From assembly GCA_003528115.1 (NCBI GenBank), contig DOGZ01000014.1, positions 66,466 to 130,465 of the forward strand: a DNA stretch of 64,000 nucleotides, in the 5' to 3' direction. Shown here piece after piece: positions 39,215-56,891 of the stretch. Within the stretch, counting starts at the first letter, position 1, and every line of letters starts with the position of its first letter. Origin of the DNA: Candidatus Omnitrophota bacterium (lineage in GTDB: Bacteria; Omnitrophota; Gorgyraeia; Zapsychrales; Zapsychraceae). Below the pieces are notes generated by a model. The model worked only from the letters and a program-made list of their open reading frames with translations. It ran no database searches and was not told where the DNA came from. The position numbers and the translations under genes are program-made.

Positions 39215-41506
39215 ATGGTGAGAAATATTTCATTCCTTATAGGACTTTCGCGTTTGGCGATCTGCTTCGTTGCAACCTTCTGTGCTTGCTCAGCGTACGG
39301 ACACTGTACGCCGCGCGGAGTTTATCCCGAGCTTTTCTCGGGACTCCTCGGTTGCGCCTCGAATTTCATCCAAACGCGAAAGTCCTACCTTAGAACGATA
39401 TCCGTTTTTTTCTTCGGTTTATCAATTTTTTTGTCGATTTTCCTGACGGGACACGCGTGGGCCCAATCTCCTAAAGAGTCTGTTGAATTAAACGGCGATA
39501 CGGTCGAATATTCGGTCGACGGCAATAAGGTAACGGCACAAGGAAACGTGGAGGTTGTTTATCAAGAGGTGCGGCTTATGTGTGATAGCGTGGAATTCTC
39601 CCGAGACACAAAGATGGCGTATGCCCAAGGCAATGTCCGTTTGGTGACAGGCCAGGGAGAGATCTCCGGCGATCGCATGGTCTTTAATTTTGAAACCATG
39701 AGCGGTGATTTTAACGGGGCGAAGATTTTTTCCAAGCCTTATTTCGGGCAAGCTAAAAAGATTTCTAAAAAGGAAGGCAACGAGATTGATCTGATTGAGG
39801 GCCATATGACCACCTGCGACCATGATAAACCGCATTTTAAAATGGTTTCCCGCAAAATAGAGATTTATCCGGGAGAAAAGATGGTTGCCCGTCGCAGCAA
39901 ACTGGTGTTAGGTAAGGTCCCGTTATTGTACCTCCCTAGGTTAACTCAGCGATTGGACGGAAAAAAGCCCCTGGTTGTTTTTACGCCGGGGTACAATAAA
40001 GAATGGGGGATGTTTGTTCTCTCCAAGACGTTTTTTCACATTAATGATAACCTCAAGGGATTTATCCGCGTCGATGCCAGGGAAAAAAGAGATGTGGCGG
40101 AAGGATTGGATCTTGAATATAAATCACCGAAGACGGGAAGCGGCCTTATCCGGACATACTACATGAATGAACGCAGGATCTCCGCCAAACGTTTTTATAA
40201 GGAACGCCCCACTCCGACCATCGAGAGGGAACGATTTAAAGCCGAATGGCGTCATAAGTGGAAGATCGATGACAATACCAATGCCATTTTACAGTATTAT
40301 AAATTAAGTGATAAAACACTTTTGAAGGAATATTTTGAAAGAGAGTTTGAGAAAGACAGCGCCCCGCAAACGTACTTTTTGTTAACGAGAAATTTGCCCA
40401 AAGGGACGTTCAGTTTCAGGACGGATGCCAGGGTTAACCGTTTTGAATCGGCGGTCGAGCGCCTCCCGGAAGTGCGCTACGATCTTTCAAATGAGAAAAT
40501 AGGGGAAACGGGGTTATATGTTAAAGATACGACGACCTTTTCTAATTTAACCTCCAAGACAGCCTCTCCCAGCGAAATCCGCAAAAAGACCCTGCGTCTT
40601 GACACGGAAAATGAGATTTCGTACCCCTTTAAGTTAGGATTTGTCGAATTGAAACCTTTTGTCGGGGGCCGAGAGACGTTTTACAGCAGGACGATCGATC
40701 CGGCGGAATACAACTCGATCCGTGGGATCTTCCGGACGGGATCAAGCCTGAGTACGAAATTTTACCGCCTTTGGGAAACCGAAACAGATGTCTGGGGCAT
40801 GGATATTCATCGTTTAAGACACATCGTGACGCCGACGGTATCGTATGTTTTTCAGGGGGACCCCACGATTCCGTCCTCCCATTTGGATTCCTTCGACAGT
40901 ATAGATTCTTTAAGTAATCAGCACTTCATTAATTTTTCTATTGAAAATAAATTGCAGACAAAAAGAGGGGGCGAGACGGTGGAATTGCTGCGCGCCATCC
41001 TAGGCACAGATTTCCATCTGAAGGAAGAGTCTACCAAGGGAGGTTTTGGAACCATAACTTCTGATATTGATTTCCGGCCCAAGGATTGGCTGACCTTGTA
41101 TTTTGACGCGGGTTATGATACAACAACGGATCGTTTAAGCACGGCCAACTTCGATTTGTATATTAACGGCAAAGACGACCGCTGGTCTTATGGCGTGGGG
41201 AAGAGGTTCAACTCAAATGCCGACGATCAACTGACCCAGGAATTAAAGTGGAAGATTAATCCCAAGTGGGCTTTGCGATGGTATCAGAGGTTTGATGTGG
41301 AGGCGGGTATTTTAAAAGAACAGGAATACACGATCCGACGCGATCTGCATGAATGGTTGATGGATATCAGCTTTAATGAAACGCGGGATGAGGGAGACGA
41401 AATCTGGATTATCTTTACACTCAAAGCTTTCCCGGATATCGCGCTGGACGTGGGCTCAGGGTTTAATGAACGCAAAGCGGGATCCCAGAGTGAAGATCGA
41501 CCGTAG
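39215..41506 (+). CDS. lptD: LPS-assembly protein LptD (OstA family); 5' end/start uncertain
   Basis: ~760 aa OstA-like organisation (N-terminal OstA domain plus large beta-barrel); the ORF's first ~60 codons are encoded by the MITE copy, so the true start is probably downstream, after ~39390. Confidence 0.7.
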   Translation: MVRNISFLIGLSRLAICFVATFCACSAYGHCTPRGVYPELFSGLLGCASNFIQTRKSYLRTISVFFFGLSIFLSIFLTGHAWAQSPKESVELNGDTVEYSVDGNKVTAQGNVEVVYQEVRLMCDSVEFSRDTKMAYAQGNVRLVTGQGEISGDRMVFNFETMSGDFNGAKIFSKPYFGQAKKISKKEGNEIDLIEGHMTTCDHDKPHFKMVSRKIEIYPGEKMVARRSKLVLGKVPLLYLPRLTQRLDGKKPLVVFTPGYNKEWGMFVLSKTFFHINDNLKGFIRVDAREKRDVAEGLDLEYKSPKTGSGLIRTYYMNERRISAKRFYKERPTPTIERERFKAEWRHKWKIDDNTNAILQYYKLSDKTLLKEYFEREFEKDSAPQTYFLLTRNLPKGTFSFRTDARVNRFESAVERLPEVRYDLSNEKIGETGLYVKDTTTFSNLTSKTASPSEIRKKTLRLDTENEISYPFKLGFVELKPFVGGRETFYSRTIDPAEYNSIRGIFRTGSSLSTKFYRLWETETDVWGMDIHRLRHIVTPTVSYVFQGDPTIPSSHLDSFDSIDSLSNQHFINFSIENKLQTKRGGETVELLRAILGTDFHLKEESTKGGFGTITSDIDFRPKDWLTLYFDAGYDTTTDRLSTANFDLYINGKDDRWSYGVGKRFNSNADDQLTQELKWKINPKWALRWYQRFDVEAGILKEQEYTIRRDLHEWLMDISFNETRDEGDEIWIIFTLKAFPDIALDVGSGFNERKAGSQSEDRP
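39240..39387 (+). repeat. MITE-like inverted-repeat element, copy A (terminal IR AGGACTTTCGCGTTTGG / CCAAACGCGAAAGTCCT)
   Basis: Near-identical second copy at 54780-54903; flanked by T...A; contains nested palindromes; copy A carries an extra ~24-bp hairpin insert. Confidence 0.75.
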
Positions 41507-45246: not shown

Positions 45247-46227
45247 ATGATGCGTTCCGGTAATATTCCCTCAGACAAATTATTAGCAATGTATGCCTCG
45301 CTGCTCAAGATCCGCCGGGTCCAACTCAAGATCGAGGAACATTATCATGAAAACGCAATGAAGACCCCCGTGCACCTTTGCCTGGGGCAGGAGGCGGTTT
45401 CCGTCGGCGTATGCGCGAACTTAAAGACACGAGATATGATCTTCAGCAATCACCGCAGCCACGGCCATTATTTGGCCAAGGGCGGAGATTTAAAAGCCAT
45501 GATGGCGGAACTTTATTGTAAAGAGACGGGGTGCGCGAAAGGCCGCGGGGGATCGATGCATCTGATTGATAAATCCGTCGGACATTTTGGATCATCCGCG
45601 ATTGTCGGCGGCGGCATCCCTCACGCGGTGGGGGCCGCGTTCGCCTTTAAGATGCGCAAAGAAGATCTTGTGGCCGTGACATTTTTCGGCGACGCGGCTT
45701 CGGAACAGGGCGTTTTTTATGAGAGCATGAATTGGGCGGCCCTCAAGAAACTGCCCGTCATTTTTGTCTGCGAGAATAATCATTATTCCGTGTGTTCGCA
45801 TATTGATGTCCGTCAGGCGAATTATGATATTTCCATGAGGGCCAGGGCTTTTGATATTCCCTCGATGAGGGTCGATGGGATGAATCTCCTGGAGGTGTGT
45901 GAGAAATCCCAGGCGGCTATTGAAATGGCCAGGGCTGGGAATGGGCCGTATCTCTTGGAGTGTGTCGTGCAGCGATGGCGGGCCCACGCCGGAGCCGGAG
46001 ATCCCCAAAAAGAACAGTATCGCAAGACGGAAGACATGGATGAATCCCGAAGGCGGGACCCTTTAAAGGATTTTACCGCTTATCTTCTGGATCATCGCGC
46101 GGCCGGCCAAGATCAGCTTGACGTCGTAGACCGGCAGATTGATCAGGAGATTGAAGCGGCGTTTCGTTTCGCCCGCGAAAGCCCCCTGCCGGATCCGGCG
46201 GGATTAGAGAAGTATTTATATTGCTGA
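45247..46227 (+). CDS. TPP-dependent dehydrogenase E1 component alpha subunit (acetoin/pyruvate dehydrogenase E1-alpha-like)
   Basis: TPP-binding motif GDAASEQG...CENNHYS. Confidence 0.8.
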   Translation: MMRSGNIPSDKLLAMYASLLKIRRVQLKIEEHYHENAMKTPVHLCLGQEAVSVGVCANLKTRDMIFSNHRSHGHYLAKGGDLKAMMAELYCKETGCAKGRGGSMHLIDKSVGHFGSSAIVGGGIPHAVGAAFAFKMRKEDLVAVTFFGDAASEQGVFYESMNWAALKKLPVIFVCENNHYSVCSHIDVRQANYDISMRARAFDIPSMRVDGMNLLEVCEKSQAAIEMARAGNGPYLLECVVQRWRAHAGAGDPQKEQYRKTEDMDESRRRDPLKDFTAYLLDHRAAGQDQLDVVDRQIDQEIEAAFRFARESPLPDPAGLEKYLYC

Positions 46228-46396
46228 ATTCCGGACTCCCGGAGTGTTCCATTATTTTTGCGCAAGTCAGGCCACTGTAACAGAAAGTATTGATTAAGTT
46301 TGTACCCTTCTTTAATCCTCCCCGCCGTGGGGGAGGAAGGGTGGGGGGTGAAAAAAATTAGGTTACAATGCAATAGAGTGCGCAGGTCAATAAAAA

Positions 46397-47440
46397 ATGC
46401 CTTGGACCAAAATACAAGTCGAAAAACAGGAACCTGTCTTTGACGCCAGTGAAGGGCAGAATGTCCGCAAATTAAGTTACGGCGAGGCCATCCGCGAGGC
46501 CTTGGATCAGGCCCTGGAACGCGATCCCCGGGTCTATGTGATGGGGCAGGGGATCAATGATCCCGGGGGCATGTTTGGATCTACCGACGGTCTTTATAAA
46601 AAGTACGGTCTGGAGAGGGTCTTTGATACGCCGCTTTCCGAGGAGGGCATCCTGGGGATGGCCATCGGATCAGCCATGGCCGGCTTGCGTCCGGTTTCCA
46701 TCCATAACCGGCCGGACTTTCTTTTAATGGGGATGGACCAGATCGTCAATCACGCGGCCAAATGGAGTTATATGTTTGCCGGTCAAGTTCCGATCCCTCT
46801 GGTGATCCGTGCCTGTATCGGACGCGGATGGGGATCGGCGGCCCAGCATTCGCAGGCCTTGCAGTCCCTTTTTGTTCACATCCCCGGCCTCAAAGTGGTG
46901 ATGCCCTCGACGGCTTATGACGCGAAAGGATTATTGATCACCAGTATCGCCGATAATAACCCTGTTCTGTATTTTGAACAGCGCTGGGTGTACAAACATC
47001 AAGGGTATGTGCCTGAGGATGTTTATTCGATTCCCTTCGGGGAAGGGGTCATCAAAAGAGAAGGGACGGATGTTACGATCGTTGCCGTTTCTCACATGGT
47101 GATTGAATCCCTGCGCGCCGCAGAGGAATTGGAAAAAAAAGGCATCAGCGTTGAGATTATCGATCCACGCTCTTTAAAGCCTTTGGATGATCAGTTGATC
47201 CTTAAGTCTGTGGCCAAGACCGGCCGGCTGCTGGTCTCTGATTTGAGCTGGAAGACCGGCGGGTTCAGCGCTGAAGTCATCGCGACGGTCGTCGAGAAAG
47301 GATTTCACTTTCTTAAGAAAGCCCCTGTCCGCGTGGCCTTTCCGGATATCCCCACGCCCGCGGGCCATGTGCTGGAAGAGGCCTTTTATCCGGGGGTCGA
47401 GGATATTATTGAAGCCGTCCGGAAATTGATGGGAAAATGA
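46397..47440 (+). CDS. TPP-dependent dehydrogenase E1 component beta subunit (transketolase-like)
   Basis: 347 aa E1-beta architecture; paired with the E1-alpha upstream. Confidence 0.8.
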   Translation: MPWTKIQVEKQEPVFDASEGQNVRKLSYGEAIREALDQALERDPRVYVMGQGINDPGGMFGSTDGLYKKYGLERVFDTPLSEEGILGMAIGSAMAGLRPVSIHNRPDFLLMGMDQIVNHAAKWSYMFAGQVPIPLVIRACIGRGWGSAAQHSQALQSLFVHIPGLKVVMPSTAYDAKGLLITSIADNNPVLYFEQRWVYKHQGYVPEDVYSIPFGEGVIKREGTDVTIVAVSHMVIESLRAAEELEKKGISVEIIDPRSLKPLDDQLILKSVAKTGRLLVSDLSWKTGGFSAEVIATVVEKGFHFLKKAPVRVAFPDIPTPAGHVLEEAFYPGVEDIIEAVRKLMGK

Positions 47441-48390
47441 TGCGAAGACATTCGAAGATCCTGATCGTCGGGCACGACGACATCGTGGAAAACGCGTTGG
47501 TGGAACACTTTCAGTCGAAGGGGTTCAGCCGTGTCTTTTCTTCCTCCGCGATGGCCATGGACACCACCATTCAAACATCGGTTTATGATTTCTTTTCTCA
47601 GCATCGTCCCGAGTATGTGTTTTTAGGATCCACCCGTTCGGGCGGGATTGAAGCGAATCGGACAAGGGGCGCCGAATTTATTTATCATAACCTCGAGAGC
47701 CAAAATAACATTCTTTACGCGGCGCATAAGTTTGGTGTTGAGAAATTGCTTTTCCTGGCGAGTTCCTGTGTCTACCCCAAAGATTGCCCGCAGCCGATAC
47801 GGGAAGAGTCACTTTTAACCGGGGAGCTGGAGAAGACCAGTGAGCCCTACGCCGTGGCCAAGATCGCCGGCATCAAACTCTGTCAGGCGTTTCGACGGCA
47901 ATACGGACTTAAAACGGTGGTGATGATCCCTGCGACGATTTACGGACCGGGAAGTGATATGGATATCCAGACCGCTCATGTCATCGGCGCTTTGATCGGA
48001 AAGTTTGAATCGGCGGTAAGCCATCATGAAAAACAAGTGACGGTCTGGGGGACAGGCACGCCTCGAAGAGAGTTTATCTATGTGGAGGATTTTGTTCAGG
48101 CCTGTCTTTTCTTAATGGAGCATTATGATCAGGAAGAGATCGTGAATGCGGGGTGCGGATACGATGTCACCATTAAAGAACTGTCCGAGATGGTCGCTGA
48201 GGCGGTTGGATACAAAGGAGATATCATTTTTGACAGTTCCAAACCTGATGGAACGGCCAAGAAATTATTGCATAACAGCCGGATCACAAAACTAGGCTGG
48301 CGGCCCAGGGTTTCTTTAAAAGAAGGCGTTGAGAAAACAGTCGCGTGGTTTAAAGAGGAAGTCAAACATCAGAAGCGTGAATTTTTATAA
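47437..48390 (+). CDS. fcl: GDP-L-fucose synthase (GDP-4-keto-6-deoxymannose 3,5-epimerase/4-reductase)-like, with degenerate N-terminal Rossmann motif
   Basis: Recalled resemblance to E. coli Fcl (e.g. LLFLASSCVYPK...EPYAVAKIAGIKLCQAF); ATG overlaps the E1-beta stop (ATGA). Confidence 0.75.
   Translation: MMRRHSKILIVGHDDIVENALVEHFQSKGFSRVFSSSAMAMDTTIQTSVYDFFSQHRPEYVFLGSTRSGGIEANRTRGAEFIYHNLESQNNILYAAHKFGVEKLLFLASSCVYPKDCPQPIREESLLTGELEKTSEPYAVAKIAGIKLCQAFRRQYGLKTVVMIPATIYGPGSDMDIQTAHVIGALIGKFESAVSHHEKQVTVWGTGTPRREFIYVEDFVQACLFLMEHYDQEEIVNAGCGYDVTIKELSEMVAEAVGYKGDIIFDSSKPDGTAKKLLHNSRITKLGWRPRVSLKEGVEKTVAWFKEEVKHQKREFL
48298..48378 (+). repeat. direct repeat copy 1 (native 3' end of fcl)
   Basis: ~80 bp repeated at 49654-49733 (1 mismatch) and, more diverged, at 51412-51469. 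Confidence 0.85.
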
Positions 48391-48465
48391 CAGTGTATTT
48401 TATTGGCGCTTTTTATTATTTAATCAGACTTCTTCAAGGGATTTAGAATTAAAAAAGGATGTGAA

Positions 48466-48711
48466 ATGCGTATCCCCCCTAATAAACAATTATTTTGGTT
48501 TCTTAAAGATACTGTCTCTTTAGATCTGTCTAAAACTTCAGACCTGGAGCTGTATGTACAACAGGTACTATCCAGAGGAAACCAAGAGGACGTCAAAGCC
48601 CTCTTAACTGCGGTTGATTTTGAACAATTTAAGCAAGTATTCTCAAGAATTAAACGATTTTTTCCCTGGGAGGTTCGGGCTTTTTGGGAGGATTTCATTG
48701 AAAATTATTAA
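48466..48711 (+). CDS. small hypothetical protein, candidate antitoxin of the downstream AbiEii-like gene
   Basis: 81-aa ORF whose stop overlaps the likely TTG start (~48695) of the nucleotidyltransferase gene; no recognised domain. Confidence 0.3.
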   Translation: MRIPPNKQLFWFLKDTVSLDLSKTSDLELYVQQVLSRGNQEDVKALLTAVDFEQFKQVFSRIKRFFPWEVRAFWEDFIENY

Positions 48712-49378
48712 CTCGGTTCAAGAAAAAATTCTCAAAAGTTTCGGCGACATTAAAGACAGTGACCAGTTTTATTTAACTGGAGGTACCGCCCTGTCTTATT
48801 TTTATTTAAAACATAGACAGAGCAATGATCTGGACTTTTTTACTTCTACAGAAGAAATTGTCGGCTCATTCAGCCATCAACTTGAGGATCATTTAAAAGC
48901 TAATGGATTTAAGTGTCAGCGGCAAAGGGGGCTCCATTCATTTGTAGAACTGATTGTGACATTGGATAATGAAACAACGCTAATTCATCTTGCCGTAGAT
49001 GCTGCTTTTCGCTTCGAACCAACGAAAGAATTTCCTGCTTTCCTTCATCTGAAGGTTGATAACTTAACTGATATTGCGTCAAATAAATTATTGGCACTAT
49101 TTGGAAGAGCCACTTTAAGGGATTTCATTGACGTTTATTTTCTGATTAAAAAAGAGGGATTTTCAAAAGAACAATTAATTGATACTGCCAAGAAAAAAGA
49201 CCCGGGATTTGATTTGTATTGGCTCGGCGTGGCTTTTGAACGGATTAATACCTTTGACTCAAAATCTACGGATATCTTTATGCTCGTTAAGCCTTTACCA
49301 ATCGAAGAATTAAAAACGTTTTTCAACCAATGGCGTAAAGAAATTGCCGGCGAATTAAAACCTTTTAAAGGACAATAG
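48695..49378 (+). CDS. AbiEii/AbiGii-family (DUF1814) nucleotidyltransferase, putative type IV TA/abortive-infection toxin
   Basis: Motifs LTGGTALSYFYL, HRQSNDLDFF and RDFIDVYFL match recalled DUF1814 family motifs; AT-rich relative to neighbours; the ORF is open from 48614 but the probable start is TTG at ~48695. Confidence 0.6.
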   Translation, partial: SLKIINSVQEKILKSFGDIKDSDQFYLTGGTALSYFYLKHRQSNDLDFFTSTEEIVGSFSHQLEDHLKANGFKCQRQRGLHSFVELIVTLDNETTLIHLAVDAAFRFEPTKEFPAFLHLKVDNLTDIASNKLLALFGRATLRDFIDVYFLIKKEGFSKEQLIDTAKKKDPGFDLYWLGVAFERINTFDSKSTDIFMLVKPLPIEELKTFFNQWRKEIAGELKPFKGQ

Positions 49379-49381
49379 GTC

Positions 49382-49515
49382 CCTAACTCCTAATTAGGAA
49401 TTTCTATTCTCCTCGAGAGCTCATCGATATCCATTTTGCACCCATTGGGTGAAAAAACTAGCTCGTCGAAATATCGAGGGAGCCATGATTCTCTAATTAG
49501 GAGTTGAGGATAGGT
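49382..49515. repeat. short inverted-repeat-bounded element (CTAACTCCTAATTAGGA ... TCTAATTAGGAGTTGAG)
   Basis: 15-17 bp imperfect inverted repeats around a perfect 10-bp palindrome CCTAATTAGG, spaced ~100 bp apart in non-coding DNA. Confidence 0.4.
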
Positions 49516-49614
49516 GTTCCCATAGCGGCAAATGAGGTTCAAGCAAAGGATGAGGCGAAGGACAACGCCTTGACGTTATGTCGTCAAGGTCGGCCACCGG
49601 CGTGAGGTGTGAGG

Positions 49615-49733
49615 TTGCAATTGTCGCCCGCGGGAGAGAATTGTAGTGTAAAAGGCGGCCCAGGATTTCTTTAAAAGAAGGCGTTGAGAAAACAGTCGCG
49701 TGGTTTAAAGAGGAAGTCAAACATCAGAAGCGT
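49615..49733 (+). repeat. direct repeat copy 2 (junction module plus fcl 3'-end duplicate)
   Basis: 49654-49733 is ~99% identical to 48299-48378; 49615-49658 is similar to 51367-51410. Confidence 0.85.
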
Positions 49734-50047
49734 CCTGGTGCTTATTAAAAAAGGCGGTGGCATAGCGTTTATCGACGTCCGCACAAGTAATAGAATGCAT
49801 CCCTTTGGCAAAAGGACGTCGTTATACTGACTACTAGCACATTCTATTTCTTTTACAGAAGTCAGTAATTTACTTTGCAAGAAAAGAAATAAGAAATTTT
49901 TTTCTTGAGCTGTCGTTATTATGAAAAATAAAGTCTACATTCAGACATGGGGCTGGGCGATGAACGCGTTATAGGATGAGAATGGAGAGGACAGCTAAAC
50001 CATAGTAAATAATAAGTTGTAACAGAAATCATCTTTCTCTTAAAATT

Positions 50048-51007
50048 ATGCACGACAAAAATCTTCATTTATGGCAACATGCGCACACCTTTGGACAGGA
50101 GCATAAACGCTCCGGGGAACGCCGTACGACTCTTGTTATTGTCATTACGGCTGCAATGATGGCGGTTGAGATTGTTACCGGCATCCTCTTCGGCTCTATG
50201 GCCTTACTTGCCGATGGTCTGCACATGGCCTCTCATACAATTGCCCTTTTAATCAACGTTTTTGCCTACATCTATGCCCGACGTCATTCCCATGATACGC
50301 GGTACAGTTTCGGTACGGGAAAGGTCAACGCTCTGGGAGGATTCACCGGAGCAGTCCTACTCGCCGTTTTTGCTCTTATGATGGCGTGGGGGAGTATGGA
50401 GCGCCTTATGCATCCTGTTTCTATTGCCTTTAATCAAGCTATCTTTGTGGCCATCATCGGATTGATTATTAATGGAGTTTCGGTCTTTATCCTTGGGCAC
50501 GAAGAAGATAATCATGACGCGCATGAACATTCCGACCATCACCACGATGACCGCCACGACCACAATTTAAAATCAGCCTATTTTCATGTTTTAGCCGATG
50601 CCCTGACATCCATTCTGGCGATTATCGCTCTCTTGACAGCAAAATACTTTGGCCTCATTTGGATGGATCCTCTGATGGGCATTGTCGGTGCCATTTTGGT
50701 ATGCCAATGGTCGTTGGGACTTTTACGAACAACGAGCTCCATCTTGCTTGATAGACAGGGATCGGACGAACTCAAAACAAAGATCAAGGAAAGCATTGAA
50801 AGTGTTGGTGATAGTCGGGTCGCTGACCTGCATCTCTGGGTGTTGGGTCCGAATATCTACGGTGTCATCATTTCGGTGGTTACTCATAATCCCGAATCGC
50901 CGGAGTACTATAAAAAATTACTTCCTCTTCATTTGGGCCTTGCGCACGTGACAGTTGAGGTTTATCCGTGTCCCAACAAGGAAGAAACCAAAGTGTCGAA
51001 TCGATGA
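50048..51007 (+). CDS. czcD: cation diffusion facilitator (CzcD/ZitB-type) divalent metal efflux transporter
   Basis: 6 TM helices, His-rich cytoplasmic loop HEEDNHDAHEHSDHHHDDRHDHN, C-terminal CDF domain. Confidence 0.85.
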   Translation: MHDKNLHLWQHAHTFGQEHKRSGERRTTLVIVITAAMMAVEIVTGILFGSMALLADGLHMASHTIALLINVFAYIYARRHSHDTRYSFGTGKVNALGGFTGAVLLAVFALMMAWGSMERLMHPVSIAFNQAIFVAIIGLIINGVSVFILGHEEDNHDAHEHSDHHHDDRHDHNLKSAYFHVLADALTSILAIIALLTAKYFGLIWMDPLMGIVGAILVCQWSLGLLRTTSSILLDRQGSDELKTKIKESIESVGDSRVADLHLWVLGPNIYGVIISVVTHNPESPEYYKKLLPLHLGLAHVTVEVYPCPNKEETKVSNR

Positions 51008-51015
51008 AGTAAAGA

Positions 51016-51222
51016 AACAAAAGACCGCGCGGTACGAAAACCGAGATTGTCGAAGCCGCTATCGCTTCCTTTAAAAAGGAATTCGCGATTTCCGATCTCG
51101 AAAAAGCCTGCCCGGGAGTAAGCCGGGACATGATCCGCATTGTGATGAACCGCTTAAGGAAAGAGGGGCGGTTAAAAATCCTGGGCCGTGGCCGCGATGC
51201 ACGGTGGGCAAAACTCAAATAG
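51016..51222 (+). pseudogene. gene remnant: C-terminal winged-helix-like fragment without a start codon
   Basis: Frame open from a TAA stop at ~51013 with no usable start; translation ...ISDLEKACPGVSRDMIRIVMNRLRKEGRLKILGRGRDARWAKLK resembles C-terminal wHTH tails (e.g. of Fic/AbiEi-type proteins). Confidence 0.35.
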
Positions 51223-51366
51223 ACAATAGCACATCTTAACGTGGTAATGAATGTGGTAATATCAAGGGGTGCCGGAGAAGACCGTTGCCTGCCCTGAGTG
51301 AACGAAGTATGTCGATGGGGTACAATCCTAATGAAGGAGGGTGTCCTGGGAATTCTGGGAATGAGT

Positions 51367-51469
51367 TTGCAATTGTCGCCCGCGGAAGAGAATTGCAGAG
51401 TAAAATGCGGCGAGGTTTCTGTAAAAGAAGGCGTTGAGAAAACAGTCGCGTGGTTTAAAGAGAAAGTCA
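51367..51469 (+). repeat. direct repeat copy 3 (junction module plus diverged fcl 3'-end remnant) upstream of the epimerase gene
   Basis: TTGCAATTGTCGCCCGCGG... shared with copy 2; TAAAAGAAGGCGTTGAGAAAACAGTCGCGTGGTTTAAAGAG shared with the fcl 3' end. Confidence 0.8.
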
Positions 51470-51487
51470 ACAGACAGGAGAGTGTTC

Positions 51488-52420
51488 ATGAAGATATTAG
51501 TCACCGGAGGCGCGGGTTATTTAGGCGCTGTTATCGTTCCTGTATTACTGAAAGAAGGCCACCAGGTCTCGGTGGTTGACAATTTTATGTATAATCAAAC
51601 CCCTTTGCTGGATTGCTGCCATCATCGCGACTTAACGATTATCCGGGGGGATGCCCGGGATAAATCCCTTATTGCCAGGGAATTAAAAACCGCCGATGCC
51701 ATTTTCCCGCTGGCCTGTTTGACCGGCGCGCCTTTGTGCGCGAAAGATCCCCAGGCCGCGGAATCCATCATCGTCGAGTCCATAAAGATGATTTTGAGCT
51801 TGCGGAGCCCGGCCCAGAAAATTATTTATCCAACGACGAACAGCGGTTACGGTGTCGGCGAGAAGGGGAAGCATTGTACCGAAAAGACTCCTTTAAGACC
51901 GGTCTCTGTTTACGGCCGGCTGAAGGTCAAGGCGGAAGAGGAACTATTAAATGCCAAAGGAGCGATAACCTTGCGTTTGGCGACGGCTTTTGGGGTGAGC
52001 CCCCGGATGCGGCTGGATCTTCTGGTCAACGACTTTACGTACCGGGCGGTGAATGACCGTTTTGTGGTGTTGTTTGAAGCCCATTTTAAACGGAACTATA
52101 TTCATGTGCGCGACGTGGCCAAGGCCTTTGTACATTCTTTGAATCGTTTTGACAAAATGAAGGACGAACCATATAATGTAGGCCTGAGTGACGCCAATTT
52201 AAGCAAGTTGGAACTCTGCGCGGAGATCAAGAAACACGTTTCTGAATTCTATTTTGTCGAATCGGCGATCGGTCAGGATCCTGATAAAAGAGATTACATC
52301 GTCAGCAATGAAAAAATTGAGGAAACAGGATTCAAACCCGATGTCTCTCTCTCGGAAGGTATAAGCGAGCTTGTCAAGGGATACCAAATTATCAAGAGAA
52401 ATCAATACACAAATGTCTAA
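51488..52420 (+). CDS. NAD-dependent nucleotide-sugar epimerase/dehydratase (SDR)
   Basis: MKILVTGGAGYLGAV Rossmann motif and catalytic YGRLK (YxxxK); start at ATG 51488 (the ORF upstream of it is out-of-context repeat sequence). Confidence 0.8.
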   Translation: MKILVTGGAGYLGAVIVPVLLKEGHQVSVVDNFMYNQTPLLDCCHHRDLTIIRGDARDKSLIARELKTADAIFPLACLTGAPLCAKDPQAAESIIVESIKMILSLRSPAQKIIYPTTNSGYGVGEKGKHCTEKTPLRPVSVYGRLKVKAEEELLNAKGAITLRLATAFGVSPRMRLDLLVNDFTYRAVNDRFVVLFEAHFKRNYIHVRDVAKAFVHSLNRFDKMKDEPYNVGLSDANLSKLELCAEIKKHVSEFYFVESAIGQDPDKRDYIVSNEKIEETGFKPDVSLSEGISELVKGYQIIKRNQYTNV

Positions 52421-52534
52421 GGTTGAACGCGTCGGCGAATTCACGGGTGTCGTGGGTGTCATCAATTCTTGGAATGCCCTTAACGCGCGGCTTGCTGAGC
52501 TCGAGTCTCCCATCAACTCTCTCTTTTTAAGTCC

Positions 52535-53995
52535 ATGGATATAGTCTTCATCAAAGCGAATAATCAAAAGAAAATCTATCAGGACCTCAGTAAAGATTTT
52601 ACGGGCATTGAACCTCCTTTATGGCTGGCCTTGACGGCCGCTTATATCAGAGAATACGGTTTCTCTGTGGCTGTGATTGACGCAGAGGCTGAAAATCTCG
52701 ATACCCAGGAAACGGTCGATCGGATCAAAGAATTCAATCCACGATTAGCCTCGGTGGTTGTCTCGGGGACGAACCCTTCCGCGTCCACTTTGAATATGCC
52801 CGGCGCGGGCGAAGTCCTAAGAGAGATGAAAAAGAAATGTCCGGGTATTCCAACGGTCATCTCCGGTCTTCATCCTTCAGCCTTGCCCGAGCGAACGGTG
52901 AAGGAAGAAACGGCCGATTTTGTTATGGAAGGGGAAGGGTTATCGACGCATTTAGAACTTCTTCAGGCCTTAAAATCAGGGAAGACGCTGGATGAAGAAT
53001 TTGCCCTGGACGGTCTTTGGTATAAAAGAGACGGCCGAATTATTTCCCATCCCAGGGCGGTCAATGTGAATGATTTGGGGATCCTGCCGATGCCGGCGTG
53101 GGATCTGCTGCCCATGGAGCAGTACCGGGCGCATAACTGGCATTGTTTTGGCCATGTCGATGAACGCCAGCCGTACGCCGTCATTTATACAAGTTTGGGG
53201 TGTCCGTTCAACTGCAGTTTTTGTTGCATCAATGTCACCTTCGGAGGATCAGGGATCCGGTATCGTCCTCCGGTCAAGGTCGTCGAAGAAATCGATTTTC
53301 TTGTGAAAAATTACGGCGTGAAGAATATCAAGGTCCTCGATGAACTGTTTGCCATGAAACAAACTCATGTGGAGGAATTATGTGATCGTCTGATTGCCCG
53401 CGGGTATGATCTGAATTTCTGGGTGTACGGCCGGATTGACACGGTCAAAGAATCCATGCTGGCCAAGATGAAGAAGGCGGGGATCAACTGGATTGCCTAC
53501 GGGATCGAGGCCGGCAGTAAAAGGGTGCGTGATGGAGTTTCCAAAGGGAGGTTCGATCAGGAACAGATTCGAAAGGTCGTTAAAATGACTCAGGCGGCCG
53601 GCATTTATGTCGTCGGTAATTTTATTTTCGGACTTCCTGAAGATGATCTTCAGACCATGCAGGAAACCTTGGATTTAGCCAAGGGATTAAATTGCGAGTA
53701 CGCCAACTTTTACTGTGCCATGGCGTATCCGGGTTCCAAGCTTTATGACGATGCCCTGGCGCAGGGGATCGCGCTTCCCCGGACATGGACCGGATACGCG
53801 CAATTTAGTGAAGAGACATTCCCCTTGGCGACGAAATATATCTCGGGCGCGGATGTCCTGCGGTTTCGCGATAAAGCCTTTGATGAATATTACGGCAGTC
53901 CGGTTTATTTAAATATGATTGAAGAAAAGTTCGGAGTGAGGACCGTTGAACATATCAAGGAAATGTGTTCCGTGAAGTTGAAAAGAAAATATTAG
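52535..53995 (+). CDS. B12-binding domain radical SAM enzyme
   Basis: N-terminal cobalamin-binding-like domain; radical SAM cluster motif CPFNCSFC (CxxxCxxC). Confidence 0.8.
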   Translation: MDIVFIKANNQKKIYQDLSKDFTGIEPPLWLALTAAYIREYGFSVAVIDAEAENLDTQETVDRIKEFNPRLASVVVSGTNPSASTLNMPGAGEVLREMKKKCPGIPTVISGLHPSALPERTVKEETADFVMEGEGLSTHLELLQALKSGKTLDEEFALDGLWYKRDGRIISHPRAVNVNDLGILPMPAWDLLPMEQYRAHNWHCFGHVDERQPYAVIYTSLGCPFNCSFCCINVTFGGSGIRYRPPVKVVEEIDFLVKNYGVKNIKVLDELFAMKQTHVEELCDRLIARGYDLNFWVYGRIDTVKESMLAKMKKAGINWIAYGIEAGSKRVRDGVSKGRFDQEQIRKVVKMTQAAGIYVVGNFIFGLPEDDLQTMQETLDLAKGLNCEYANFYCAMAYPGSKLYDDALAQGIALPRTWTGYAQFSEETFPLATKYISGADVLRFRDKAFDEYYGSPVYLNMIEEKFGVRTVEHIKEMCSVKLKRKY

Positions 53996-54029
53996 ACGGC
54001 GGGAAAGAGGGGAAAACGAGAGGGGATTT

Positions 54030-54767
54030 TTGAATTTAGAAAATGTTGATGCCGTTGTCCTCTGCGGGGGGCTTGGGAAAAGATTAAGAAGTGTTACCGG
54101 AGACAATCCAAAGGTTATGGCCGCGGTCGAGGGCAGGCCTTTTCTGGATGTCCTCATGGAGTATTTAGCGCGGCAGGGATTCAAACGGGTCATATTATGC
54201 ACCGGTTATCAAGCCGATCAGATTGAAGCGTATTACCGGCAAAACACCCACGGACTGCGTTTTGAGTTCTCCAGAGAAGAAGAACCTTTGGGGACGGGAG
54301 GGGCGGTAAGAAACGCCCGATGTTTGATTCAAAGTAGTCCTTTCGTTGTTTTAAATGGGGATTCATTTTGCGCGGTGAATTACCGCGCTCTGGGGGAGTT
54401 TCATCAATCCCGAAAAGCCCTGGCTTCTGTGGTTGTCTCGAAGGCCGAGGATCATAGGGATTACGGGGGCATTGTCCTTGATGAAACCGGCAGGATTGTC
54501 CGTTTCCTCGAGAAGAATAACCCGGTTCTGTCCGGCGGAAAGAAGACAGCGGACGAGGTCTCCTGCGTCAATGCCGGGATTTATTGTTTTAATGACGAAA
54601 TTTTTTCCTTCATGCCCAAAGCACGGACCTTTTCTTTGGAATATGATTTTTTCCCAGGTCTTGTACGACATCTTTTTTTTGGTTTTCTGGTGGAGGAGGC
54701 CTTCTTGGACATTGGCACGCCGGAAAGATATCAGCAGGCCTTGGCAAAAATGAAAAGACCGGTTTAA
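54030..54767 (+). CDS. sugar-1-phosphate nucleotidyltransferase (HddC / GDP-heptose-type)
   Basis: TTG start; nucleotide-binding motif VVLCGGLGKRLRSVTGDNPKVM typical of the NTP_transferase family. Confidence 0.75.
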   Translation: MNLENVDAVVLCGGLGKRLRSVTGDNPKVMAAVEGRPFLDVLMEYLARQGFKRVILCTGYQADQIEAYYRQNTHGLRFEFSREEEPLGTGGAVRNARCLIQSSPFVVLNGDSFCAVNYRALGEFHQSRKALASVVVSKAEDHRDYGGIVLDETGRIVRFLEKNNPVLSGGKKTADEVSCVNAGIYCFNDEIFSFMPKARTFSLEYDFFPGLVRHLFFGFLVEEAFLDIGTPERYQQALAKMKRPV

Positions 54768-54779
54768 AATAAATTAAAG

Positions 54780-54903
54780 TAGGATTTTCGCGTTTGGCGA
54801 TCTGCTTCGTTGCAACCTTCTGTGCTTGCTCAGCGTACACAACAGTACGCCTCGCTTCGCTCCTCGGTTGCGCCTCGCATTTCATCCAAACGTGAAAGTC
54901 CTA
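54780..54903 (+). repeat. MITE-like inverted-repeat element, copy B
   Basis: ~90% identical to 39240-39387 apart from a ~24-bp indel; same orientation; intergenic, immediately 5' of the GT2 gene. Confidence 0.75.
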
Positions 54904-54916
54904 TAAAAAAAAGGAA

Positions 54917-55714
54917 ATGGTTTTGCGTTCTCAGCAGGAGAAACAACGCGTGGAAGATATTATCGTCAGGAACAAGATGACGGCTTACAGTCTTTCGGTG
55001 GTGATTCCGGTTTATAATGAAGAAGACTGTATTGAAGAGACGCTGGCGAAGATTCAGGAGTTCTTGAACGTCCGTTTCCAGGATTATGAGATCCTTGTCG
55101 TGGATGACGGCAGTGATGACGGGACGTATTTAAAAGTCAAAGCCTTGGCCGAGAAAAACAAACGCATCCAATTGTTCAAGAACGATAGAAACAGCGGTAA
55201 GGGATTTAGCGTCAAAAGGGGCATGCTGGCGGCCACGTCGGACTTTGTTTTGTTCATGGACGCGGACTGCTCAACCCCGGTTGAAGAAATTATGAAATTT
55301 GTGCCGTATTTCTCCCAAGACATCGATATCCTGCTGGGTTCCAGAGTCTTGAAAGAGTCTAACGTCCTTAAGAGGCAAGGGGTTATCCGCAGGAGCTTGG
55401 GTCGGTTGTTTAATTGCCTTATTCAGATATTTTTATTCCAAGGCGTCCAGGATACGCAATGCGGGTTTAAGTGTTTTAAAAGACAGGCCGCCCAGAAATT
55501 ATTTAAACTCCAAACGATTCAGCGGTATTGTTTTGACGCCGAGATTCTTTTCTTGGCCAGAAAACGGAACTGTACCATTAAAGAAATTCCGATCACCTGG
55601 GTCAACAGAAAGAATTCAAGATTGGGAATTATAAAAGACGCCCCGAAAATGCTTTCCGATTTATTAAAGATCCGGTGGAATGATTGGAAGGGTATATATG
55701 CGGATTCCCGCTAA
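54917..55714 (+). CDS. family 2 glycosyltransferase (polyprenol-phosphate sugar transferase, DPM1/ArnC-like)
   Basis: SVVIPVYNEEDCI...VVDDGSDDGT GT2 signature with DAD motif (FMDADCS). Confidence 0.8.
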   Translation: MVLRSQQEKQRVEDIIVRNKMTAYSLSVVIPVYNEEDCIEETLAKIQEFLNVRFQDYEILVVDDGSDDGTYLKVKALAEKNKRIQLFKNDRNSGKGFSVKRGMLAATSDFVLFMDADCSTPVEEIMKFVPYFSQDIDILLGSRVLKESNVLKRQGVIRRSLGRLFNCLIQIFLFQGVQDTQCGFKCFKRQAAQKLFKLQTIQRYCFDAEILFLARKRNCTIKEIPITWVNRKNSRLGIIKDAPKMLSDLLKIRWNDWKGIYADSR

Positions 55715-55736
55715 TATGTCCATCAAGGGTGGAGAA

Positions 55737-56891
55737 ATGCGAAAGACATTTAAAGTTCCCTTCGGGACGGTTTCTATCACGCCGGAGGCGCGTCAGCTCA
55801 TTGACCGGATCCTTGAGTCCACGTGGGTGACCAAGGGGAAATATGTGCAAGAGTTCGAGAAGAAATTCGCGGAGCTTTTCGGCGTCAAGGAGGCCGTGGC
55901 GGTCAGCAGCGGCACGGATGCCGATGCCCTGGCCTGCGCGGTCCTTTATGACTTTGGGGCGCGGCGCGGGGATGAAATTATCGTCCCGGCCCTTTCTTTC
56001 GTCGCTACGGGCAATGCCGTCTTTCAGGCGGGATTTGTTCCTGTCTTTGTGGATGTCCAGAGGGAGACATTAAATATCAATCCGGCGAAGATCGAAGAAG
56101 TGATCACGCCCAAGACCCGGGCTATCATGCCGGTGCATTTGATGGGGAAGCCGGCCGCGATGGATCAGATCCAAGAGATCGCCCGGCGACACAAGCTTTT
56201 TGTGATTGAAGATGCCGCCGAGGCTCATGGCGCGCAATACCGGGGGGAAAAAATCGGGGCTATCGGAGATATGGCGGCCTTCAGCCTTTACGCGGCGCAT
56301 ATTGTGACAACGATTGAAGGCGGGATCATGACGACCAATAATCCCGCGATGGCGGAGGCCATGCGGTCGTTGCGCAATCATGGCATGGTGAACAAATTCA
56401 CTTTCCAGCGCATCGGCTTTTCCGCCAAGATGAATGAAATTGAGGCGGCGGTCGGTCTGGGGAATATCCAAATATTCTCGACCATCCTGGAGAAACGCCG
56501 AAGAAATTTGATTTATCTTATTGACAAATTCAGGAGATTCGAAGATTATTTTATAACCCTCAAAGAGGAGCCGTACGAAAAAATAGGGCCGCACGCCTTT
56601 TCGATCATTCTGCGGGAAAAGGTGGGCTTTACCAAGGACGAATTTGTTTCTTACATCGAAGCCAAGGGAATCGATTCGCGGAATCTCTTTTATTCCATGC
56701 CGACCCAAACGGCCAGTTACGCCTTTTTAGGCCATAAGCTCGGGGATTTTCCCGAGGCGGAGTATTGTTCAGATCAGGGGACACACATCGGCATCCATCA
56801 AGACATTTCTTCGGAAGACCTGGATTATATCGCGGAGGTCGTTCAGACGTTTCTCCAATCAAAAAGATTAAGGGTTCGCTCATGCACATAG
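55737..56891 (+). CDS. DegT/DnrJ/EryC1/StrS-family PLP-dependent sugar aminotransferase
   Basis: Family architecture; PLP-lysine region; ORF is open from 55680, overlapping the GT2 end. Confidence 0.8.
   Translation: MRKTFKVPFGTVSITPEARQLIDRILESTWVTKGKYVQEFEKKFAELFGVKEAVAVSSGTDADALACAVLYDFGARRGDEIIVPALSFVATGNAVFQAGFVPVFVDVQRETLNINPAKIEEVITPKTRAIMPVHLMGKPAAMDQIQEIARRHKLFVIEDAAEAHGAQYRGEKIGAIGDMAAFSLYAAHIVTTIEGGIMTTNNPAMAEAMRSLRNHGMVNKFTFQRIGFSAKMNEIEAAVGLGNIQIFSTILEKRRRNLIYLIDKFRRFEDYFITLKEEPYEKIGPHAFSIILREKVGFTKDEFVSYIEAKGIDSRNLFYSMPTQTASYAFLGHKLGDFPEAEYCSDQGTHIGIHQDISSEDLDYIAEVVQTFLQSKRLRVRSCT

Follow-up and report, generated by a model that had tools for sequence, protein, structure and literature searches.

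Two repeat-bounded gene cassettes in tandem at the 3' end of an fcl-like gene of an Omnitrophota bacterium: a candidate case of site-specific accretion

Introduction

Cis-mobilizable elements (CIMEs) and their tandem accretion at the 3' end of a target gene are known from the ICESt1/ICESt3 family of Streptococcus thermophilus (reviewed in PMC5704250). CIMEs have lost their integration and transfer genes while keeping the attachment (att) sites attL and attR, and the entry of a second element into one of these att sites gives rise to three consecutive att-type repeats. In this work, we analysed a locus with the same layout in 64,000 nucleotides of DNA from a Candidatus Omnitrophota bacterium (Omnitrophota; Gorgyraeia; Zapsychrales; Zapsychraceae), taken from NCBI GenBank assembly GCA_003528115.1 (contig DOGZ01000014.1, positions 66,466 to 130,465 of the forward strand). 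This whole stretch is called the window below, and positions are counted from its first letter. At this locus, two short cassettes stand between an fcl-like sugar gene and the epimerase gene that directly follows it in related genomes, and three copies of the fcl 3' end bound them. As in CIMEs, the 3' end of the target gene is part of the direct repeats, this gene is intact thanks to a surrogate end that would have been supplied by the incoming element, and no integration or transfer genes are present. Besides these likenesses, the locus departs from the streptococcal elements in several respects: no related integrase-bearing element is known, the cassettes measure only 1.3 to 1.75 kb, the host is an uncultured member of the Omnitrophota, and the target is a sugar-nucleotide gene of the short-chain dehydrogenase/reductase (SDR) family in a lipopolysaccharide (LPS)/glycan operon.

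Two further systems deserve comparison. In Dehalococcoides, tandem islands at ssrA, each delimited by a direct repeat of the 3' end of that gene, carry a conserved element-borne motif just 5' of each direct repeat, which cannot be aligned to the intact gene, and 15 of these islands, devoid of an integration module, were considered cis-mobilizable (PMC3146451). This behaviour is exactly that of a 44-nucleotide (nt) block of our locus, which we named module B. However, the Dehalococcoides islands use a tmRNA target and a 20-bp repeat, and many of them encode the serine recombinase DsiB, whereas here the target is protein-coding, the 80-nt tail that is repeated contains a core of 41 nt and a recombinase candidate is lacking. 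In the Rhs, contact-dependent inhibition (CDI) and type VI secretion system (T6SS) arrays, successive insertions at a gene end push the old 3' end downstream and generate orphan 3' fragments, a process for which homology-facilitated illegitimate recombination has been proposed (PMC5361080). The displacement of an old 3' end downstream of a conserved gene is shared with the present locus, but the displaced ends of those arrays encode different toxin domains, a diversity that is the very purpose of such arrays, whereas the tails described here are near-identical and non-functional, the cargo between them bears no relation to fcl and each relic comes after a shared module that is not part of a gene. 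A C-terminal displacement array, which associates alternative C-terminal domains with immunity genes, was rejected for this locus, as all tails encode the same peptide (KEGVEKTVAWFKE in translation).

Results

Three copies of an fcl gene end and a shared non-coding module

The repeated sequence corresponds to the 80 nt that precede the final four codons of the fcl-like gene and is present three times in the window. Copy 2 differs from copy 1 by a single mismatch (79/80 identical, 99%) and copy 3 (51404–51483) is 80% identical to copy 1, which confirms the recurrence of the fcl end announced by the original prediction, a reading of the letters made before any database search. The three tails start 1355 nt (copy 1 to copy 2) and 1750 nt (copy 2 to copy 3) apart. 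A 40-mer taken from the tail has exactly three occurrences in the window, while none is expected from shuffled sequences. The longest block that is identical across the three tails measures 41 nt (starting at 48317, 49672 and 51422), and none of the 13 differences that separate copy 1 from copy 3 falls within this core, an arrangement with a probability of about 0.0007 under random placement.

Module B (TTGCAATTGTCGCCCGCGG) is non-coding and stands directly 5' of tail copies 2 and 3; 5' of copy 1, there is only the uninterrupted reading frame of fcl. The two occurrences of module B (90% identical when 49610–49659 and 51362–51411 are aligned) are the only ones in the window, and the second shared module that had been proposed before these two copies is thus real. 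It holds a hairpin of 6–7 bp (GCAATT...AATTGY), and the unit formed by module B and the tail can be aligned over ~111 nt at 91% between copies 2 and 3. Another resemblance, claimed by the same prediction between 49495–49525 and 51320–51345, is not above chance, and the segment 49493–49509 is the inverted-repeat end of a miniature inverted-repeat transposable element (MITE). Once this MITE is removed, nothing 5' of module B aligns above shuffled sequence (score of 18 versus a mean of 18.0). The left arms of the cassettes have no similarity to each other and the cassettes share nothing beyond module B and the tail, their sole common short motif being one A-rich 11-mer of marginal significance.

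An insertion at a junction that is closed in most related genomes

For comparison, we used 24 loci with fcl relatives (39–73% identity) from species-representative genomes, which belong to Omnitrophota and a few other phyla (cited below by their L numbers where needed). A homologue of the epimerase gene that starts at 51488 is found 3' of fcl in 17 of these 24 loci, and fcl abuts it with a gap of −4 to 157 nt in 14 of the 17; the fcl stop even overlaps the epimerase start (ATGA or TTGA) in six of them. Cassettes and tail repeats are absent from the fcl-epimerase junction of all relatives compared. Since fcl directly abuts the epimerase in most of these relatives, the 3.1 kb that separate both genes in the window are an insertion. 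The inserted cargo island of the original prediction holds in this respect, although what had been taken for a single island is made of two tandem units, and the idea of repeated recombination at a conserved gene-end junction is supported by both the related genomes and the assemblies described below. All genes of the fcl-cassette-epimerase region lie on the + strand.

The three gene ends are not equivalent. Copy 3 ends in ...GTTCATGA / ...CAGGAGAGTGTTCATGAAG, a stop/start-overlap layout whose TGA is one frame off the fcl frame of the relic, and it leads straight into the ribosome-binding site and the ATG of the epimerase gene. Because this overlapping junction with the epimerase has been kept, the best reading of copy 3 is that of the original 3' end of fcl, which has been moved 3.1 kb away and has decayed slightly. 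The tail copies had been suspected to be relics of displaced fcl-like paralogues: a displaced relic is indeed what copy 3 appears to be, but its origin would be the ancestral fcl end and not a paralogue. The ancestral fcl-epimerase pair was contiguous in this scenario and probably translationally coupled. On the right sides of copies 1 and 2, an in-frame stop occurs within four to five codons, so that fcl could be completed by either cassette.

Insertions at the same fcl-epimerase junction were also found in three relatives (L009, L011 and L022); they are unrelated, have no flanking repeats and designate this junction as a recurrent insertion point. The junction tolerates insertions and the repeat-bounded structure is specific to the lineage studied here. 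The inserts of the relatives comprise a 367-aa membrane-anchored open reading frame (ORF) (L009:4800–5903), two ORFs of ~116 aa (L011:8933–9661) and a 521-aa protease/TPR-like protein (L022:3459–5024).

The target gene itself is best called fcl-like. Its product reaches 378 bits with the NCBIfam Fcl model NF047922, below the equivalog cutoff of 500, and the label "fcl" given at the outset is therefore right for the family but not for a true Fcl. Among 5.8 billion proteins, no closer relative than a homologue of 69% identity was found, and all members of its 90% protein cluster have the same C-terminus, without any C-terminal variant. An Rfam search of the whole window at gathering thresholds and a tRNA/tmRNA scan returned nothing, i.e. 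no tRNA-type target, group II intron or riboswitch. The gene set around fcl (45247–56891) includes the alpha and beta subunits of a thiamine pyrophosphate (TPP)-dependent E1 dehydrogenase, the fcl-like SDR, a second SDR epimerase, a B12-binding radical SAM enzyme, an NTP-transferase and a DegT aminotransferase. This set recurs across Omnitrophota (L010–L025, L030 and L032) and is also present in Dehalococcoidia and other metagenome-assembled genomes (MAGs). As its "fcl" falls below the Fcl equivalog cutoff, it seems to represent an uncharacterised pathway for a modified sugar and not ordinary GDP-fucose synthesis.

Conservation of the arrangement among assemblies and strains

The window sequence is reproduced at 99.9–100% identity in at least seven independent assemblies (ENA, JGI, Logan and NCBI), obtained from different samples with different assemblers. 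All three tails are spanned by contigs from ENA (k141_3045047, 119 kb), JGI (Ga0209211_10000166, 144 kb) and NCBI (MHFX01000014.1, 366 kb), the latter belonging to Omnitrophica WOR_2 bacterium GWA2_45_18 (GCA_001804395.1) from the Rifle aquifer, and a further contig (L038) spans copies 1 and 2. As the same sequence recurs in all these assemblies, the repeats are not an assembly artefact, a risk that the original prediction had pointed out. Several assemblies interrupt their contigs within the island (at 49383/49507, 50904, 50998, 51042, 51282 and 51404), and the break at 49383/49507 results from a real presence/absence polymorphism of the MITE.

A diverged strain (L053; ANAN16-1 scaffold_159302, positions 1–2451), which is 95% and then 98.4% identical to the window, keeps the order module B–tail 2–DmeF–module B'–tail 3–epimerase, and cassette 2 would therefore predate the strain split. 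The same scaffold displays an apparent internal duplication of 239 nt in dmeF (394-aa product) and a gap of 10 N that coincides exactly with the boundary between module B' and tail 3. It represents either a chimeric scaffold or a recombinant strain and, being gapped, it is too unreliable for fine mapping.

Foreign and mosaic cargo

Cassette 1 has a GC content of 0.389 versus 0.476 for the whole window and carries a toxin-antitoxin (TA) pair. The AbiEii-like gene that had been recognised from the letters is well founded, and its GC content of 0.36 (0.32 at third codon positions, GC3) fits the low values of the pair as a whole (GC3 of 0.32–0.34 versus 0.51–0.62, about 0.56, in neighbouring host genes). 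The TA pair is compositionally foreign. As in the AbiE and DUF1814 (MenT-type) modules (PMC3985639, PMC11375011), the two genes are bicistronic and overlapping, and the second one encodes a DUF1814 nucleotidyltransferase with its catalytic motifs, here GG(28-29)...R40...D44-L-D46 and KLLALFGR (motifs I to III as defined in PMC3985639). The upstream gene of AbiE modules encodes the antitoxin AbiEi (COG5340, an N-terminal winged helix and a C-terminal domain), whereas the 81-aa partner found here is predicted to be all-helical and has no detectable relation to AbiEi. This small protein has no match in Pfam, NCBIfam, PADLOC or PDB, and a search with its predicted five-helix fold (pLDDT 78.7) was equally without match.

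More than 1000 homologues of the toxin exist, and the overlapping pair (81 aa and ~222 aa) is conserved at other loci (L046–L049) with 60–79% identity. At these places, the pair is wedged on the same strand inside unrelated operons of groundwater genomes (L046/L047:3368–4268, L048:4280–5180 and L049:3833–4733), and flanking repeats are absent from the insertions in L047–L049.

The MITE of cassette 1 is inserted 2 nt past the AbiEii stop, holds no ORF and ends in the inverted repeats CCCTAACTCCTAATTAG / CTAATTAGGAGTTGAGG. Three independent assemblies (L037, L038 and L039) have the clean empty site GGACAATAGGTGTTCCC, showing that this MITE is polymorphic and has recently been active. The window contains a second MITE family with two copies (39240–39387, 148 nt; 54780–54903, 124 nt) that share blocks of 95–98% identity and have perfect 18-nt inverted repeats (TAGGACTTTCGCGTTTGG / CCAAACGCGAAAGTCCTA). 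One of them is found 5' of lptD, and the other separates the NTP-transferase gene from a GT2 gene. The start called for the lptD ORF, at 39215, is probably too early, which makes this ORF run through the MITE. This pair had also been considered as another gene-fragment duplication, an option that was rejected in favour of a second MITE family.

Cassette 2 (GC 0.458) is dominated by a metal exporter gene. The "CzcD-type" transporter of the original prediction is a metal exporter as stated, although its type has to be refined to DmeF (Co/Ni) according to the NCBIfam equivalog NF033827 (399.8 bits versus a cutoff of 250). DmeF homologues are 83–89% identical at the protein level, compared with 69% for the closest relative of fcl. 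At the nucleotide level, an identity of 81–87% is confined to 50003–51016 in three unrelated contexts, which suggests that dmeF spreads between these groundwater bacteria as a small unit. The neighbours of this unit elsewhere (L050:5965–6958, L051:106–1086 and L052:3388–4371) are an AbiEii-like gene, a HEPN ApeA gene and an insertion sequence (IS) transposase (rve).

The startless gene fragment noticed 3' of the exporter is the remnant of a Fic/Fido gene, the C-terminal 65 residues of which match residues 300–364 (of 366) of PDB entry 8uqu_A (E-value of 1.3e-14). Since the DmeF identity is confined to the small unit, cassette 2 appears as a mosaic in which this unit overwrote most of the Fic gene. 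The ORF located 3' of DmeF in L051 was examined as a possible relative of the Fic remnant and rejected as unrelated. Together, the cargo of the two cassettes is foreign and mosaic, and its content is limited to the 81-aa ORF, AbiEii, the MITE, DmeF and the Fic remnant, without integration or transfer genes. The coordinates of all features are collected in Table 1.

Table 1. Features of the fcl-epimerase region (window positions)
Feature	Coordinates	Strand	Remarks
fcl-like SDR gene (GDP-fucose-synthase family), target	47437..48390	+	intact ORF, 317 aa; Pfam Epimerase 2e-51
Tail copy 1 (attL-like)	48299..48378	+	core 48317-48357
Cassette 1 (1355 nt)	48379..49733	+	last fcl codons and stop (EFL*), TA pair, MITE, 94-nt spacer, module B, tail copy 2
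81-aa ORF, putative antitoxin/partner of AbiEii	48466..48711	+	overlaps toxin start by 14 nt
AbiEii/DUF1814 nucleotidyltransferase toxin, 226 aa	48698..49378	+	Pfam PF08843 6.6e-17; PADLOC AbiEii 4.5e-13
129-nt MITE	49381..49509		17-nt terminal inverted repeats; 6-bp target-site duplication ATAGGT 49375-49380 / 49510-49515
Module B, copy 1	49610..49653	+	directly 5' of tail copy 2; hairpin
Tail copy 2 (hybrid att-like)	49654..49733	+	core 49672-49712; followed by its own in-frame stop (PGAY*)
Cassette 2 (1750 nt)	49734..51483	+	short in-frame end (PGAY*), 270-nt leader, DmeF unit, Fic remnant, 139-nt spacer, module B', tail copy 3
DmeF unit	50003..51016	+	cation diffusion facilitator (CDF) Co(II)/Ni(II) exporter gene 50048-51007 plus ~45 nt upstream; promoter-like site 50017-50046
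Fic/Fido gene 3' remnant, C-terminal winged-helix domain	51013..51222	+	69 codons, no start
Module B', copy 2	51362..51403	+	90% identical to first copy
Tail copy 3 (attR-like)	51404..51487	+	core 51422-51462; GGAG ribosome-binding site; TGA overlapping epimerase ATG
Next sugar gene (SDR epimerase/dehydratase, 310 aa)	51488..52420	+	directly 3' of fcl in related genomes

Discussion

The explanation that we favour, with a probability of about one half, is that two small, horizontally acquired and integrase-less cassettes came to lie in tandem at the fcl-like 3' end through site-specific accretion of decayed integrative elements. By analogy of layout, they resemble the cis-mobilizable elements of streptococci. 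Each cassette would have arrived as DNA endowed with an attP-like site, composed of module B and a mimic of the fcl 3' end, and the exchange between this site and the fcl tail of the chromosome would have taken place inside the 41-nt core. Copy 1 would thus be an attL with a chromosomal left side and an element-derived right side that supplies the fcl end and its stop codon. Copy 2 would be a hybrid between the right arm of cassette 1 (module B), the core and the left arm of cassette 2, and copy 3 an attR in which the right arm of cassette 2 (module B') and the core meet the original chromosomal end joined to the epimerase start. Regarding the order of events, cassette 2 would have come first with a Fic gene that was later overwritten by the DmeF unit, cassette 1 with the AbiEii pair would have followed at the fcl-proximal site, and the MITE would have entered cassette 1 later still. 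Any recombinase would have to act in trans. We infer that the crossover fell within the core, that the cassettes were acquired in this order and that a site-specific enzyme was at work rather than RecA. Such an accretion accounts for the presence of module B before copies 2 and 3 only, the ability of both cassettes to complete fcl, the ancestral junction of copy 3 alone and the restriction of three-way identity to the core.

Several observations weigh against site-specific accretion. No integrase, recombinase or transposase was found in the cassettes or elsewhere in the window. Module B and the tail have no match in viral contigs and no significant match in the 24 related loci; plasmids matched only the coding part of dmeF, without module B or tail, and phages gave no match. 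A codon-degenerate pattern of the tail recovered from a metagenome collection only a fragment of the same organism. Within the cassettes, no repeated motifs of the arm type were found, and their size (1.3–1.75 kb) is far below that of typical decayed integrative elements. Among the contigs on record, neither an empty fcl-epimerase site nor a single-cassette strain nor a circular junction was seen. Finally, on its left flank, copy 2 agrees with the chromosomal fcl and not with the P-arm version found in copy 3, and a model with a fixed crossover therefore requires a later gene conversion.

A possible, if tentative, explanation that comes close to the favoured one is recombination by RecA at the same repeats. 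According to this recombinase-independent scheme, a single ancient join between foreign DNA ending in module B and the old fcl tail would have been made by homology-facilitated illegitimate recombination with fcl as anchor, followed by turnover of the cargo. RecA exchange between the 80-nt tails of different strains, through unequal crossover or Campbell-type integration of an excised circle, would then have stacked two versions, and gene conversion would keep copies 1 and 2 alike. The lack of any recombinase within 64 kb speaks for this scheme, as do the left flank of copy 2 and the near-perfect match between copies 1 and 2 along all 80 nt, with edges that are sharp exactly where homology ends, which is expected for homologous recombination or gene conversion. 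In the same vein, the mosaic identity of the diverged strain (95% then 98.4%) indicates that recombination is active at the locus, and an accumulation of displaced 3' gene ends by such events on the 3' side of an intact gene has been proposed for T6SS and Rhs loci (PMC5361080). However, illegitimate joins should vary in position, whereas both relics start at the same base after the same 44-nt module B (10% diverged). A perfect core of 41 nt in a copy 3 that is otherwise ~16% diverged is also non-random, as the probability of about 0.0007 indicates, and 41 nt are short for an efficient exchange by RecA. Moreover, the other insertions at this junction (L009, L011 and L022) and those of the same TA pair leave no repeats.

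A local duplication of the unit formed by module B and the tail, through slippage or unequal sister-chromatid exchange, is an unlikely alternative in which the cargo blocks would have entered afterwards through transposition, illegitimate recombination or other unrelated events. Small transposable elements are indeed active in this genome, as illustrated by the polymorphic MITE of cassette 1 and the second MITE family of the window, and the DmeF unit is independently mobile in unrelated contexts, where it once adjoins an IS transposase. Nevertheless, such a duplication leaves unexplained why copy 1 is devoid of module B and why the cargo blocks start exactly at the tail end and supply the fcl stop. 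In addition, these blocks have neither terminal inverted repeats nor target duplications, and a difference of 10% between the module B copies against 1% between tails 1 and 2 is inconsistent with a single recent duplication.

An integron-like array without integrase (cluster of attC sites lacking integron-integrases, CALIN), in which module B and the tail would act as folded attC-type sites, is very improbable and already largely refuted by the folding result. The promoter-proximal insertion, the same-strand cassettes and a repeat unit of ~111–125 nt at each cassette 3' end are reminiscent of such arrays. True attC sites are imperfect palindromes that form a long hairpin with R''/L''-L'/R' boxes. 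Yet module B and the tail fold no better than shuffled sequences on either strand (z-scores of −0.3 to −2.2) and offer only the short hairpin of 6–7 bp, no R'/R'' boxes (GTTRRRY) were seen by eye, and no intI gene lies within the window. Cassette 1 comprises two genes, and cassette 2 combines a pseudogene with a gene preceded by a promoter-like site of its own, a composition that also speaks against integron cassettes. The least probable explanation is a chimeric or collapsed join at the 80-nt repeats during assembly, which the contig breaks inside the island and one IDBA scaffold (10-N gap at the module B'/tail 3 boundary, internal DmeF duplication) might evoke, but independent samples and assemblers give identical contigs across all three copies, the repeats are shorter than the k-mers used (127 and 141) and the break at 49383/49507 is explained by the MITE polymorphism.

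Beyond the accretion of two cassettes, one may ask whether module B and the fcl tail constitute the site of an undescribed family of tiny integrase-less cassettes, captured in trans and stacked at the 3' end of a sugar-nucleotide gene in Omnitrophota. This extension is doubtful, as it relies on a single locus for which no second example was found. If true, it would reveal a gene-end-targeting cassette platform, distinct from integrons, through which genes for defence and metal resistance are brought into a cell-envelope operon.

The layout of the repeats defines exact junctions that can be searched for: the empty site fcl...core...AAAGTCAACAGACAGGAGAGTGTTCATG, the circle junction of cassette 1 (module B-tail-GAATTTTTATAA / GAATTTTTATAACAG) and that of cassette 2 (module B'-tail-CCTGGTGC / CCTGGTGCTTATT). 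For annotators, the 80-nt repeats and the two MITE families explain the recurrent contig breaks in this MAG. Concerning the benefit of the cargo, the Rifle aquifer is a metal-contaminated site, and a Co/Ni exporter is plausibly useful there.

To conclude, the mobile elements of Omnitrophota are almost undescribed, and this locus provides a worked example of how accessory genes are gained in these small genomes. It is unusual for its tiny cassettes, its protein-coding sugar-gene target in an LPS/glycan operon and the lack of a recombinase candidate. By entering at the end of a conserved operon gene, the insert spares this gene and leaves its ancestral end behind as a dated relic. Seen in this light, the locus is a tidy and well-supported instance of known genome dynamics in a poorly studied phylum.

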